A stretch of DNA of 34,630 nt from Thermoplasmatota archaeon (GTDB lineage: Archaea > Thermoplasmatota > Penumbrarchaeia > Penumbrarchaeales > Penumbrarchaeaceae): positions 1-34,630 of the forward strand of contig JARVGK010000035.1 of assembly GCA_029762535.1 (NCBI GenBank). The letters are read 5' to 3'. Below are positions 1,703 to 20,260 of this stretch, piece after piece; the first letter of the stretch is position 1; each line of letters begins with the position of its first letter. The position numbers and the translations under genes were made by a program. The notes below the pieces were generated by a model. It was not told where the DNA came from. It made no database searches and was given only the letters and a program-made list of their open reading frames with translations.

Positions 1703-1875
1703 GGAGGATCCCCTTCCATCCCCACAACAAAGTGGGGAGATCCTCTTCTTCAATAAGGAGAATATCCTATACTCAAGGGGTATCGCACCCTTCTTAAGGA
1801 GGAGGATCCCCCCCCTCCAATGAATGAAGGCTACTCTTCGAGAAGGTGATCCCACCTCTTCCGAAGGGGATCCCG
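1703..1875. repeat. Degenerate copy of the interspersed hairpin repeat (~115-bp core)
   Basis: GGATCC..tccccac-aacaaa-gtgggga..ctcttc..; second unit ggatccccccc..ctcttcgaga..ccgaaggggatccc. Module order matches 5720-5895 and 7675-7860. Confidence 0.6.
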
Positions 1876-2048
1876 CGAGTGATGAATACGTTACCAAACA
1901 TTGGGATCTCACATGGTTATAGGTGGGTGCATCTCCTTTGAGAAGTTGTTGCTACTTTCAACGAGCATTCTTTCTTTGTCTACGAGTGAGACCTTTCTCA
2001 TCTTAATAATGAGAAGGAGACATGAATCAGCAAATGGTTATGACGAAA

Positions 2049-2330
2049 TCACCGATATTTGGACCACTCATCTGAGGCATGGTAGATTATCTCTCCCTCA
2101 AGGTAAAGGATCGCTTGACCTGATATTTCAACCCTCGATCCTTTGTCTGTGCAGATGAGTTTTCCGCCTCTTTTTAAGAGCTTGACAGCATTCATCGTCT
2201 TCTTTCCAAGGATATTGCTCCAATAAGGTGCGAGCGTGGTATATGCCGATCCTGTAACGGGATCATCGTTCACACCGACGCTTGGGGGGAATAACCTGGA
2301 TATAAAATCAGATCGATCTCCCTCATGGAG
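2049..2330 (-). pseudogene. PhzF-family (DAP-epimerase fold) isomerase, C-terminal remnant
   Basis: DFISRLFPPSVGVNDDPVTGSAYTTLAPYW...RGGKLIC...RVEISGQAILYLEGEI matches the PhzF C-terminal EDPVTGSA motif. In-frame TAA TAG stops near 2410, and the N-terminal two-thirds is absent. Confidence 0.8.
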
Positions 2331-2567
2331 GGGGATCTCCCTCCTTTTCCCACTACTGGATCCCTTCGAGATAAAGAAGATCTTCCCGCGAACCTTGGGG
2401 AGGGATCTCTATTACGAAACACTACCTACCATGACCCGATATCTTCTTATAAGGGCCCCCCGGGGAGGAGGAGAATTCGGTATTCCTCGGTCTTGACCGA
2501 AGATAGGGGCTTAATCAAGCATCAAGATGATAAATGAAAAGGCCTATACTTACGCAGGTGATAGTAG

Positions 2568-2951
2568 ATGGTCGAGCTGAAGGAATTATTGCAAAAGGGC
2601 GATTGGAAGAACGAAAAGCATATGCCAGTGATAGAGGTGGTGAAACACGATGGCAGCCTGGTCGAGGTCGAGGCCGTGGTGGGAAAGGAGATCCAGCATC
2701 CGAACAAGACGGAGCATCACATAGAGTTCATCAAGCTGATGTTCCTCCCAGACGGGGAGAAATTTCCCTATATCATCGGTGAGTATCACTTCTGCGCACA
2801 CGGGGCGTCCGTCAAGGGTCCTGACACGAGCACTATTTATTGCGAACCCCATGTTATCGCCAGGTTCAAGACCGAGAAGCCCGGGTTCATCATAGGCGAA
2901 TCCTACTGCAACATACACGGATTGTGGACCAGCGAGATCCGCCTCAATTGA
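2568..2951 (+). CDS. sor: Superoxide reductase (neelaredoxin, 1Fe-SOR)
   Basis: EKH-x-P, HPN-xx-EHHI and YCNIHGLW iron-ligand motifs; AGGTGA SD at 2556-2561. Confidence 0.93.
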   Translation: MVELKELLQKGDWKNEKHMPVIEVVKHDGSLVEVEAVVGKEIQHPNKTEHHIEFIKLMFLPDGEKFPYIIGEYHFCAHGASVKGPDTSTIYCEPHVIARFKTEKPGFIIGESYCNIHGLWTSEIRLN

Positions 2952-2982
2952 ACTGGAAGTGGGATTAGAAATTAGCGACAGC

Positions 2983-2992
2983 AATTATATAT
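2983..2992 (+). promoter_or_regulatory. TATA box for pruA (probably a leaderless transcript)
   Basis: TTATATAT at 2985-2992, ~27 nt before ATG 3019. Confidence 0.5.
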
Positions 2993-3018
2993 CCGTTATG
3001 TTTTAAGAATTATGGGTT

Positions 3019-17586: not shown

Positions 17587-19023
17587 TCAATCGTTTCCAG
17601 AAAGATACCTCACATATATGTCATCGATTCCCCAGTATTGGCCTGCATCACTATCACCATTAAAACCTCTTTCATCAACAGTGAACACTAACTCGATACT
17701 GCTCTTGAAGTGACCTTCAACATGTGCGGAAACAGGTCTGATCAAGTCGCCACTGTCCAGGGTATGTTCAACTCCGTATTTATCGGTAAAAACTACTTTT
17801 GTTGTGCTGTAGCCTAGAGAATTGATAGTGTCGGACTCCTTATAACCGCCTGGGTAATCGTCTTCCTGAAGTGATAATTTGGCCCATGATCCATAGACAT
17901 ATCCCTCATGGCTCGGTTCGTTATCAACATACATCCATGCACTCTCTCCACCCATCCAAGGGCCAATCAAAATGATATTAAATTCAACATTGATCCTGGA
18001 ATGTGGGGGAATATTATCCAGGAAAAGTACTACCTTTTCTGCACCAAAGGGTCCTAGGAATTTTTCCTTTCCATTGGGGCTGGTTTCAATTCTTATGGGA
18101 TTTGGACCTTCAAAGGTTCTTTCCTGTCCGTCCATTACGATATTGTAACGGGTCCATTCTTCACCTACAATTGTTTCGTTAAAATGGTTGAAATAAGGCC
18201 AATCAAATCCGACATCTATCACGATCATCAAAGTTATACGCCCAATCAATGTGAATTCTGCGATCCCGTATCTCGAATTCGGGTTTGTTGTAGCATATGC
18301 ATTCCCACGTATGATACCATTTTCGTCTGAAGTCATTTTTCTGGGGTCCCCTTTCCCATAGGTCTCGCCATCATGGTTCAATGAATATGTATCCAATTCT
18401 ATCCATGTGTTTGCGAGAGGTTCCCCAGTGGGCTCGCTGGTGTCCCCCTCTTTCTTCAATTTCAACTGACAGCTGAATATCCATTTATCCATATTGTCAT
18501 TGGCTATCCTGTTCTTATTCGTATGGACAATGAATCCTACCTTCTCTCCCATTGCAACGTATCTGCTGAATGAGATGATTTTTCCAGATATCATTTTCCT
18601 ATCCGTATCTACTTTACAATCCTCAACAAGTTTGAATTTTTCGTCTTCTACCTTGTAAATACCAAGCATGTATTCCTCGACACCCTCGGGTAATTCAACA
18701 TCAGAGTAATTCATGAAGATGTCCACTTTCCTGTCGAAAACCGTTCCATCCGGTCCGAAATCGAAACATAGATCCTTGACCACCCCTGCATGTTCAGGAG
18801 CATCATCTGACTTCTTGATGCTTATCTTCTTGGAGTCTATCAAGGCATCTTCCTGAATATAAACCGAGGCGGATGCATCTTCAGTTGATACCCATCCACC
18901 TGTTTCATCGATCTCTACACCCACCCCTTCATTATCATCTTCATCATTCGATTCAATGCAACCACTTAGTCCGGTTAAAAGCAGTACAATAATTATTCCT
19001 GCGATCCCTATCTTTTTGTACAT
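17587..19023 (-). CDS. Secreted lipoprotein with N-terminal ZU5-like domain
   Basis: MYKK-hydrophobic-LSGCIE lipobox; GGAGG SD before ATG 19023; IDETGG..SVYIQEDAL..FDFGPDGTVF..LPEGV..LGIY ZU5-like pattern; AT-rich relative to flanks. Confidence 0.75.
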   Translation of the reverse strand: MYKKIGIAGIIIVLLLTGLSGCIESNDEDDNEGVGVEIDETGGWVSTEDASASVYIQEDALIDSKKISIKKSDDAPEHAGVVKDLCFDFGPDGTVFDRKVDIFMNYSDVELPEGVEEYMLGIYKVEDEKFKLVEDCKVDTDRKMISGKIISFSRYVAMGEKVGFIVHTNKNRIANDNMDKWIFSCQLKLKKEGDTSEPTGEPLANTWIELDTYSLNHDGETYGKGDPRKMTSDENGIIRGNAYATTNPNSRYGIAEFTLIGRITLMIVIDVGFDWPYFNHFNETIVGEEWTRYNIVMDGQERTFEGPNPIRIETSPNGKEKFLGPFGAEKVVLFLDNIPPHSRINVEFNIILIGPWMGGESAWMYVDNEPSHEGYVYGSWAKLSLQEDDYPGGYKESDTINSLGYSTTKVVFTDKYGVEHTLDSGDLIRPVSAHVEGHFKSSIELVFTVDERGFNGDSDAGQYWGIDDIYVRYLSGND

Positions 19024-19085
19024 GGTCTTCCTCCAACATGGCAAATCATATTGAATAGAAATAAAAAGAATTTTTCATTACAGAT

Positions 19086-19466
19086 CTCCTGATCATTGTG
19101 AGGTAGGAGTAATGTCATAAGATATAACCATTATGGGGGGTGTTTGGAATGTATTCGTGGTAGAGGAATGGATGATAGTTAACATCCCTTGCCCATGGGA
19201 ATGATGGGACAAAGATCCAGGGATCGAGATGGATATGCCCTCGGAACGATGAGGGGATCCCTTTATAAATCCTGGAAAACAGACCCGCCCACGGCGGGTC
19301 TTTTTTGCCGGGGGGATCCTCCCCCCCACCCCCAACGAGTTTGGGGGCATATCTTTGAGATGGGGATTACCTTTCTACACTCAATGGCACTGTCTTTGAG
19401 ACGGGATTATCCTTCCTTCACGAAGGAGGGGATCTCTCTACCTTCTCTTATGTAGGGGGGATCCCC
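19086..19466. repeat. Modular hairpin repeat copy, including a duplicate of the GNAT start and upstream region
   Basis: ctcctgatcattgtgag..gagtaatgtcataagatataacc matches 5131-5183; followed by the tttataaa/hairpin module and a core unit. Confidence 0.92.
19282..19306 (+). terminator. GC hairpin + T-tract inside the repeat (terminator-like)
   Basis: gacccgcc-cac-ggcgggtc-tttttt; the same hairpin occurs at 7608-7626. Confidence 0.45.
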
Positions 19467-19489
19467 GATGATATTATCAAGATCGATAC

Positions 19490-19921
19490 TTATTCTCCGA
19501 TATACATTACATTTTCTTTTCCTTTAAAATGATCATCTCCGGTTACCAATATTGAATTATACTTTCGTGCTGTGGTTAAAATTATTGCATCTGCCATCGG
19601 TAATTTTTCTTTGACACTATTTTCAGCTGAGGATATTGCGATCTCATCGGTCAGATCAATGACCTTTGTTGAATATTTTATATATGCAATTGCCTTGAAT
19701 GCCTCTTCTTCATTAACATCTCTATATATCTTTTTAAAAACTTCATAAATAATAATTACCGGAGTGAAATAATGTTCAGAATTCGCTTTTTCAATATATT
19801 CCCAGAATCTATTTGCATTCACACCCCCCAAGAAGAATTCTATCCATGCACTGGAATCGATAATATAATTATCAACCATATCATCGCTATCGACAACATG
19901 TTCAGTATCTGTCCTCTTCAT
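19490..19921 (-). CDS. vapC: VapC-family PIN-domain toxin (true start possibly ~19879)
   Basis: IIDSSAWIEF, IIYEV, LPMADAIIL, LVTGDDHF. Confidence 0.9.
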   Translation of the reverse strand: MKRTDTEHVVDSDDMVDNYIIDSSAWIEFFLGGVNANRFWEYIEKANSEHYFTPVIIIYEVFKKIYRDVNEEEAFKAIAYIKYSTKVIDLTDEIAISSAENSVKEKLPMADAIILTTARKYNSILVTGDDHFKGKENVMYIGE

Positions 19922-20111
19922 CCCGGATCCCCTCTTTTAAAAGACCTTTGTATCTTCCCTTCATTTCTCGGATATCTCCAACCCGAACAATATGAATTAT
20001 GCCATTTTTTTCAAATACCACGACCTTCTCCCCAGGATGAATATCGATCCTCTTGCGTATGGGTTCGGGGATCACTACCTGATATTTTGGTGAAACGGTT
20101 ACGGTCTCCAT
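19902..20111 (-). CDS. vapB: AbrB/MazE/SpoVT-family antitoxin
   Basis: VTVSPKYQVVIPEPIRKRIDIHPGEKV AbrB signature; directly upstream of the PIN gene. Confidence 0.9.
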   Translation of the reverse strand: METVTVSPKYQVVIPEPIRKRIDIHPGEKVVVFEKNGIIHIVRVGDIREMKGRYKGLLKEGIRDEEDRY

Positions 20112-20199
20112 ATTATCACTGTTAAACGATATGCGTATCCATCTATAAGTAGTCTCCCTGACCTCTCATAGCGATAGGACAAAGCCCCCTGAATAGGGA

Positions 20200-20260
20200 T
20201 GGGGATCCTCCCGTCATCCACCCCCCCAACAACGATGGGGGATCCTCTTCGAGGACGGAA
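20200..20260. repeat. Single core hairpin unit of the repeat
   Basis: ggggatcctccc..cccccc-aacaacgat-ggggga-tcctc-ttc-gagga. Confidence 0.7.

Follow-up and report, generated by a model that had tools for sequence, protein, structure and literature searches.

The window analyzed here is contig C31 in its entirety, a 34,630-nucleotide stretch from the genome of a Thermoplasmatota archaeon (G000), and between 1.7 and 20.4 kb it carries accessory genes that are separated by ten non-coding repeat loci. All ten loci lie on the + strand, an agreement with a two-sided chance of ~0.002. The feature is real and unusual, and it recurs in the lineage; the anatomy of the elements, their clustering, the strand-specific structure of one of their units and their recurrence in a sister genus are all matters of observation. 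The G000 assembly is a 2.96-Mb draft in 102 contigs that is 93% complete, and the absences of enzymes reported below are to be read with that figure in mind, as absence from an incomplete genome is no proof. The archaeal nature of G000 is indicated by five matches to the TATA-binding protein (TBP) domain, a family restricted to archaea in a control search, and its tRNA genes are preceded by promoters with a B recognition element (BRE) and a TATA box.

The repeats were detected with a direct-repeat search and with BLAST of the ten spacers, and their modules were placed with one nhmmer profile per module, the core (C) unit being located with a covariance model (model R2) as well. BLAST matches between segments of the contig were 38 direct versus 2 inverted, and the two inverted matches correspond to a coding flavodoxin fragment. 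The copies in the window are 65-92% alike. The C unit, ~90-115 nt long, has 17 copies in the genome by model R2, 12 of them on C31 and all of these on the + strand, mostly as tandem pairs with a spacing of ~110-116 nt. Beyond position 20395 of the window, neither the modules, the models nor BLAST found the family again. The original prediction for this DNA had described about ten non-coding copies in a single orientation that cease before the end of the window, and both points are borne out; the even scatter between housekeeping genes that it had named as counter-evidence was not seen, with 12 of the 17 core units falling within 20 kb.

Two of the copies in that prediction, at 9807 and 14283, belong to the family through module W (tgggatcg..tact..cgtgga) alone, which is the sole module that the loci at 9810 and 14285 have in common with other loci. 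Module W was located with a variable-gap regular expression over the whole genome, the pattern being derived from the same four copies that it finds (9810, 14285, 14343 and 15921, all on C31 and all +); an nhmmer profile of W gave only its self-match, and a fixed-gap pattern search gave none. A search of 23 genomes from the same family did not recover the core unit, and a metagenome scan with a 17-mer that is kept in all four A modules returned 48 loci, all of them chance matches with no other module.

The element is a lineage-specific, composite and degenerate chain of short hairpin units that runs in one direction throughout. Within the window the modules keep the fixed order A-B-T-G-H-W-C(-C), and copies vary by the presence or absence of modules. 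The reshuffling of modules originally described does not hold here, a split being seen only at a second cluster on contig C25. Internal tandem duplications are bounded by short direct repeats, such as ggcgagtcttttt. On the minus strand, module A reads aaggg-TTATATCTT and is followed 31-40 nt on by an ATG; it fits the promoter consensus (aaggg-TTTATA) that was derived from the G000 tRNA genes, and is a consensus archaeal promoter, directed leftwards, with a start codon. The left edge of module A, directly after ATGATCAGGAG, is common to four copies (5131, 19086, C25:50549 and one on C72), where it adjoins four unrelated sequences, and a paralogue on C52 of the 144-aa open reading frame (ORF) at 4707-5141 has no A-like region upstream. 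The hairpin of module B (ctttgccc..gggcaaag) varies in its loops. In module T, the palindrome TTTATAAA leads into an A-run, then a GC stem and then a T-run (the arms being 19 nt long in R6), and the C units are chains of C-run/loop/G-run mini-hairpins with GGATC between them. At 19044-19096, a 16-codon ORF begins with the ATG of the R6 copy of module A, and its stop overlaps the start of the 485-aa gene (ATGA). The portable promoter may therefore drive the 485-aa gene through a coupled leader peptide.

The H unit, 64 nt long and present in 15 copies in G000, folds into two hairpins. In an alignment of 13 copies from G000 and three genomes of the sister genus g5, eight of its 16 pairs show compensatory changes on both sides, and 96.2% of the pair cells are paired, compared with 86.1% in shuffles (0 of 500 reach the observed value); sliding the partners gives no more than 64%. 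Since 11 of the 13 copies have G-U at one of the pairs, the fold belongs to the + strand only. The base pairs of H are kept through compensatory changes across copies and genera, as in a structured single-strand element. Conserved TATA boxes stand upstream of structured units, on the structured strand, and the order TATA, hairpin, G, H is kept at three G000 loci.

One explanation for these features is that the elements are non-coding RNA genes or cis-acting RNA modules. A TATA-driven chain of + strand hairpins (T, G, H and C) would then act on the adjacent toxin-antitoxin or defense genes, for example as a convergent antisense RNA or as a protein sponge, and tandem duplication would account for the co-orientation. 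The covariation of H, with G-U pairs that exist on the + strand only, and the conserved order behind the TATA box speak for such a role, as does a distribution that is low-copy and locally tandem rather than high-copy and dispersed; at five loci, moreover, a + strand transcript would enter the 3' end of a minus-strand gene. Against it, a T-run lies within ~45 nt after the TATA box, neither the C nor the W units show covariation, and Rfam 15 gave no gathering-score match in the whole window, the matches in 5100-8000 being at chance level (E 0.25-0.42). Gene stumps at the edges of the elements are also not explained by RNA alone. Taken with the arrangement in the sister genus described below, these points make an RNA function of the elements doubtful.

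The cargo between the elements comes in blocks of one to five genes, or one to three after block 1, and GC content per kb ranges from 34 to 53% across the array. Of ~20 cargo genes, four are on the + strand and have TATA boxes of their own; for the genes that start at 10135 and 12999, the box is 30-45 nt upstream. Several earlier statements about the cargo can be judged from these data. The mixed GC content, the genes with promoters of their own and a truncated gene at a repeat edge (the flavodoxin fragment at R5) were all recovered, and the estimate of one to three genes per interval applies everywhere except block 1, which has up to five. Two PIN-antitoxin pairs, the AAA_14/DUF4143 ATPases and the ORF6N protein were correctly recognized, but the proposed GNAT gene (4707-5141) and lipoproteins had no Pfam or NCBIfam match. 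The flavodoxin fragment is an inverted copy of part of an intact gene at 21312-21872 (-), with 63% identity over 89 aa (tblastn), and this truncated, inverted copy inside the array is a footprint of rearrangement. The aldehyde dehydrogenase of block 1 has its best relatives in bacteria (Bacteroidales, Riflebacteria and Cloacimonadota, ~60% identity) and is only 51% identical to that of the sister archaeal genus g5, and it was probably acquired from bacteria. The exact protein is not on record in other assemblies, and in the sister genus the synteny around it extends to that gene alone.

A different explanation is that the repeats are passive mosaic intergenic DNA. A long regulatory spacer with a promoter, terminator-like hairpins and protein-binding GGATCC palindromes would have been copied with its neighbors by segmental duplication and then have decayed through deletion, slippage and gene conversion, in the manner of bacterial interspersed mosaic elements (BIMEs) or the mosaics of Neisseria, and the repeats would record the history of the island rather than the entry sites of its cargo. 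Much in the window agrees with this. The modules are colinear and differ by deletions and by tandem duplications bounded by short direct repeats; C units and a winged helix-turn-helix (wHTH) gene have been duplicated as a unit (5700-6322 versus 7650-8255), within which 6226-6322 matches 8159-8255 at 78% with a 46-bp identical core; module A fits the tRNA promoter consensus, the T hairpins resemble two-way terminators, and at nine of the ten loci a gene on the minus strand starts immediately downstream of the element on that strand. The palindromes are also abundant genome-wide, GGATCC occurring at 1.23 per kb (~5x the expectation under equal base use) and GATC at 10.6 per kb (~2.7x), an over-abundance of GGATCC that is reminiscent of the cyanobacterial palindrome HIP1. 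On the other hand, duplication by itself leaves two things unexplained: the unrelated cargo, of differing GC content, between the copies, and the edge that four A copies share beside unrelated DNA. We regard this explanation as somewhat unlikely, also in view of the sister genus.

Related repeats occur elsewhere in G000. The family forms a second cluster, again uniformly on the + strand, at 48.3-52.3 kb of C25. This cluster lies between SLFN-like and HEPN-MNT genes of the minus strand, and its modules are split over three successive spacers. On the same contig, an MNT-HEPN pair (C25:36160-37032) and a HepT-MNT pair (C25:52536-53587) each lie between direct repeats of 51-79 bp with 92-96% identity, and one of these flanking repeats is of the GGATC-hairpin style; the two toxin-antitoxin pairs look like recent single-crossover insertions at sites other than attC. 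Co-oriented arrays of GGATCC-hairpin repeats are present on C35 (seven copies, 17-30 kb) and on C102. Over the whole genome, non-coding repeat pairs that lie more than 300 bp apart on one contig are 40 direct versus 1 inverted (14 contigs).

It could be asked whether C31 is an assembly artefact, a chimeric metagenome contig that was joined through its repeats. The assembly is a draft in 102 contigs, GC content varies within the array, and the family is also found at contig ends (C6 and C4) and on tiny contigs (C2, C61 and C72), which indicates that it breaks assemblies. Nevertheless, the same design is found on C25, C35 and C102 and in three other genomes, and copies within the contig that are 65-92% alike are unlikely to have been collapsed or falsely bridged by short reads. 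A chimeric origin is thus very improbable.

The arrangement recurs in the sister genus. With a model of the H unit, each of three g5 genomes yielded a single locus, G010 also giving a weak additional match, and in each of the three genomes direct repeats of 99-263 bp (72-82% alike) stand around a single cassette (Table 1). At the GNAT and AbiE loci the direct repeats contain or overlap H-type units, and at the AAA_14 locus of G004 a lone H match lies ~140 nt past the second repeat. The bracketed cargo is of the same classes as in the window, and a HicAB pair, a PIN/DUF2281 pair and a further AAA_14 gene adjoin the bracketed cassettes. The H unit is ~76-81% identical between genera whose aldehyde dehydrogenases are 51% identical, and this conservation, together with the compensatory changes, points to selection or mobility. 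Neither the preservation of H nor the bracketing of single cassettes in another genus is explained by passive duplication of a spacer. An RNA role gains from a promoter-like box (GTTTAAAATA or ACCGTTCAAATAC) that lies ~100 nt upstream of the g5 units on the structured strand, but the g5 loci vary in whether cargo and H fold share a strand, and RNA alone does not explain the bracketed cassettes.

Table 1. Repeat loci and cargo blocks of the array, and bracketed cassettes of the sister genus. Positions are those of the window, except in the last three rows, where they are those of the contig named. Primes mark variants of modules B and T.
Feature	Position	Strand	Content	Source
R0	1693-1872	+	two C units, 1700-1780 and 1791-1869 (nhmmer) or 1693-1784 and 1790-1872 (model R2); left array edge, with the start of a DUF7948 surface-protein gene on one side and small ORFs on the other	nhmmer; model R2
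Block 1	1901-5141	mixed	two small ORFs; desulfoferrodoxin-type gene 2568-2951 (+); aldehyde dehydrogenase 3019-4668 (+); 144-aa ORF 4707-5141 (-)	Pfam
R1	5131-5905	+	longest copy; A 5131-5205 (minus-strand promoter and ATG); B 5241-5335 (hairpin ctttgccc..gggcaaag); T 5344-5397 (TTTATAAA, GC hairpin, T-run); T' 5423-5452; G 5456-5516 (12-mers GGGGCCCC); H 5511-5573 and 5600-5659; C 5707-5796 and 5824-5905	
Block 2	5977-7352	-	wHTH gene 5977-6309; paralogous pair of unknown genes 6364-6975 and 6972-7352, GC 0.34, with its own AT-rich upstream region 7353-7523	Pfam
R2	7524-7861	+	B' 7524-7566; T 7578-7628; C 7647-7742 and 7769-7854	
Block 3	7886-9583	-	wHTH gene or remnant 7886-8155, homology to 8255; SLFN AlbA_2/HATPase_c_4/wHTH protein 8276-9583	Pfam
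Rw1	9810-9847	+	single W module	regular expression
Block 4	10135-12249	mixed	AAA_14/DUF4143 ATPase 10135-11379 (+); PIN toxin and ribbon-helix-helix (RHH) antitoxin 11522-12249 (-)	Pfam; PADLOC PDC-S01
R3	12447-12720	+	C 12447-12542 and 12567-12652, then a GGATCC-rich tail	
Block 5	12999-14264	+	second AAA_14/DUF4143 ATPase	Pfam; PADLOC PDC-S01, E 8e-95
Rw2	14285-14382	+	tandem W modules 14285-14324 and 14343-14382	regular expression
Block 6	14541-15622	mixed	ORF6N-domain protein 14541-15419 (+); 103-aa ORF 15311-15622 (-)	Pfam; PADLOC PDC-S05, E 1.5e-117
R4	15664-16143	+	B' 15664-15705; TATA-like box 15749-15756; H 15811-15870; W 15921-15961; C 15956-16043 and 16061-16143	
R5	16808-16863	+	module B alone; B match 16820-16863	nhmmer
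Flavodoxin fragment	16867-17130	+	C-terminal, truncated; starts 4 nt after module B of R5	
Block 8	17169-19044	-	DUF6122 protein 17169-17516; 485-aa unknown protein 17587-19044	Pfam
R6	19086-19470	+	A 19086-19139; B 19173-19243; T 19252-19305; C 19300-19389; further mini-hairpins	
Block 9	19490-20111	-	PIN toxin 19490-19921; AbrB/MazE-type antitoxin 19902-20111	Pfam
R7	20189-20275	+	one C unit, then palindromic module S 20297-20395	
G004, contig C16	157-255 and 1896-1994		direct repeats around an AAA_14 gene	
G010, contig C18	628-805 and 1969-2153		direct repeats around an AbiEi/AbiEii pair	
G015, contig C252	1594-1850 and 3264-3520		direct repeats around a GNAT gene	

We favor, at a probability of roughly 0.4, the reading that the region from 1.7 to 20.4 kb is a non-integron cassette array that was built by single-crossover insertion and excision at the repeats. 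At the level of DNA, the elements would serve as the array's joints: a circle bearing one element and its cargo would enter through a single crossover with a resident element, and the cargo would exit by the reverse reaction. Every such event would leave direct repeats around the cargo, whichever enzyme acts. We infer both the crossover at the elements and an enzyme that makes it, which could be either the host's own homologous recombination or some structure-specific recombinase whose gene lies elsewhere. Insertion of this kind would result in a uniform orientation of the repeats with a free orientation of the cargo, in an element in nearly every spacer, in sharp edges beside unrelated DNA, in gene stumps, and in single cassettes bracketed across genera.

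Several points weigh against a cassette array of this kind. Recombination at the repeats was not observed, with no sign of excision, of circles, of an empty site or of polymorphism among strains. The elements have no conserved end motif, crossover core or cleavage core, and there is no recombinase in the window; the recombinases found in the G000 assembly are two tyrosine recombinases, one integron/XerA-like on C25 and the other partial, besides a single serine recombinase and a single IS110-family protein, none of which lies beside the repeats. Copies that are 65-92% alike with few long identical runs would make a poor substrate for homologous recombination, and a regulatory role shared by the nine loci upstream of minus-strand starts could explain the orientation. 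The consensus fold of the C unit is unsupported (-2.9 kcal/mol, with no covariation), and the conserved TATA boxes on the structured strand suggest that the units are transcribed. Finally, the 40:1 excess of direct repeat pairs takes in CRISPR, attC and tRNA-linked repeats, and the three g5 genomes are kin, so that they represent perhaps one or two independent cases.

A more far-reaching idea is that the elements are the sites of an undescribed archaeal cassette-capture system that is independent of the integron in the same genome, which we think unlikely. The hairpin chain would in that case be recognized as folded single-stranded DNA, or be transcribed from its TATA box into a guide-like RNA, and cassettes of one to three genes would be inserted and excised in either orientation. 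Candidate recombinases would be the lone integron/XerA-like integrase or the AAA_14-DUF4143 ATPases, which are found in the islands of G000, G004 and G010, with none on the short G015 contig. The original prediction, largely right in its description, had likewise proposed cassette or capture sites, and this is partly supported in that the elements separate accessory cargo and share one orientation and that direct repeats with homologous units bracket cassettes in g5, but no cleavage core or linked recombinase accompanies them. The genome search that it had called for, for recombinase and HUH genes next to the repeats, found none adjacent to them in G000.

Integrons deserve particular attention in this context, as G000 has an integron-like array of its own, whose seven attC-like sites, in the region 77.8-96.1 kb of C25 and at 76.5 kb of C6, follow the pattern TAAC-stem-GAAGTT-hairpin-AATTTGGGT-hairpin-stem-GTTA. 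Its tyrosine recombinase (C25:100855-101655) scores 187 bits with an integron-integrase model and 185 bits with an archaeal XerA model, both below the cut-off. A cluster of attC sites lacking integrase (CALIN) does not require an adjacent integrase. The repeats of C31 could accordingly be imagined as a decayed integron arm, or as integrative elements piled up at one attachment site. The integron-like array in the same genome would fit the former, as would module S of R7, further copies of which lie 30 nt after the integron-type integrase gene on C25 and, elsewhere, on C47, C84 and C101, and the cargo classes match those of archaeal integrons (toxin-antitoxin genes and acetyltransferases; PMC9668308). 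Yet a covariance model (model R1) of the seven attC-like sites, run with filters off, found no attC in the window (best E 1.1), and a generic AAC..stem..GTT scan gave 0 matches in 1-22 kb compared with 10 matches (four distinct sites) in the C25 array, in keeping with the original judgment that the repeats are not attC sites. Nor does C31 have a tRNA gene or a tyrosine recombinase, PF00589 matching only C25:101143-101622 and C53. The cargo, in both orientations and with its own promoters, does not consist of promoterless co-oriented cassette ORFs, and the elements are modular and 40-780 bp long rather than imperfect palindromes of 55-140 nt. The tests already largely refute an integron arm or a pile-up of integrative elements, and we consider either highly implausible. 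The core unit was also tried as an attC-like hairpin, a candidate that was rejected (weak fold, no covariation).

Other classes of mobile or repeated DNA fit no better. Instead of being high-copy, dispersed and alternating, as repetitive extragenic palindromic (REP) sequences and BIMEs are, the repeats number 17 C and 15 H units that are clustered and co-oriented on each contig, and the Y1-HUH family of REP-associated tyrosine transposases (RAYTs; PF01797) had no match in the assembly, although controls matched. No terminal inverted repeats bound R1, R2 or R6, as they would in miniature inverted-repeat transposable elements (MITEs); there are internal hairpins only, and lengths vary from ~40 to 780 bp. 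The assembly has no TnpB or DDE_Tnp_1 genes, and the window has no integrase, HUH, TnpB or DDE genes. CRISPR arrays do not describe the family either, since the intervals between repeats are 1-3 kb and carry genes.

Some further observations concern G000 and the rest of the window. A CRISPR-like array with a repeat of ~37 nt (TCTCTCCATGGCCTTTTGGCCGTGGCCCCATTGAAGC) lies at C5:63181-66877. The genome has a single IS110-family DEDD recombinase (C22:32710-33153, in a 438-aa open frame), whose flanks have no BLAST or module match to the window repeats; H-profile matches on C22 lie beside a tRNA-Thr gene ~26 kb from it. Small structured units of ~110-142 nt, some in tandem, stand directly beside tRNA genes (C15:9979-10321, C36:31780-32124, C58:94370-94588, C34:25871-26069, C10:22298-22501 and C102:424-630). 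Every unit terminates with a duplicate of the tRNA 3' end, and the ggaaaatc-loop-gattttc hairpin is common to these units and module H. Direct repeats of 46-150 bp, spaced ~0.4-2.9 kb apart, also flank several tRNA genes. The tRNA-adjacent units may be miniature integrative elements. The GC-rich right half of C31 holds an ORF of 2370 aa (25345-32457, -) that has many paralogous repeats, both within itself and across the genome; its neighbors are an S8 peptidase and an MscS channel.

To our knowledge, no machinery for assembling accessory genes into arrays is well understood except the integron, whose discovery in archaea dates only from 2022. G000 has an integron-like array and, on four contigs, several other arrays with the same kinds of cargo and different repeats, and one structured unit (H) plays the same part in the sister genus. 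Should cargo enter at the repeats, with these as its joints, they would represent a second archaeal route to defense and toxin-antitoxin islands, one that accepts genes in either orientation. If they are passive, they would be a rare archaeal case of mosaic intergenic elements with portable promoters. In either case, the elements provide a concrete marker for finding such islands in metagenomes.

Among known systems, BIMEs, REP sequences and the REP-derived REPINs that are moved by RAYTs (PMC2817692, PMC3116915) resemble the elements described here in being intergenic mosaics of GC-rich palindromes and linkers with possible roles as terminators or protein-binding sites. The archaeal elements differ in that each unit has 15-17 copies rather than hundreds, confined to a few islands and co-oriented, in that the host is an archaeon, and in that no Y1-HUH enzyme was found. 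The intergenic mosaic elements and "minimal mobile elements" of Neisseria form repeat arrays near variable genes, and the cargo between their conserved flanks is exchanged by homologous recombination. They have no sequence relation to the present elements, which are strictly co-oriented and include promoter modules, and we know of no natural transformation or uptake sequences in this organism. In streptococci, the accretion of integrative and conjugative elements (ICEs) and cis-mobilizable elements (CIMEs) by repeated single-crossover integration leads to blocks between direct repeats. Here the blocks are 1-3 kb long, without integrase remnants and without an anchoring tRNA or other gene, and the repeats are long, diverged and modular, unlike the short and identical att core of ICEs and CIMEs. 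Archaeal integrons carry cargo that includes toxin-antitoxin genes and acetyltransferases (Ghaly et al. 2022, PMC9668308). The elements of G000 differ from those of integrons in having no AAC/GTT boxes, no single imperfect palindrome and no adjacent integrase, in being modular and TATA-bearing with a wide range of lengths, and in separating cargo that lies in both orientations under its own promoters. Like integron arrays, however, they separate accessory cargo with co-oriented structured repeats, and the H unit, like attC sites, folds on one strand only.

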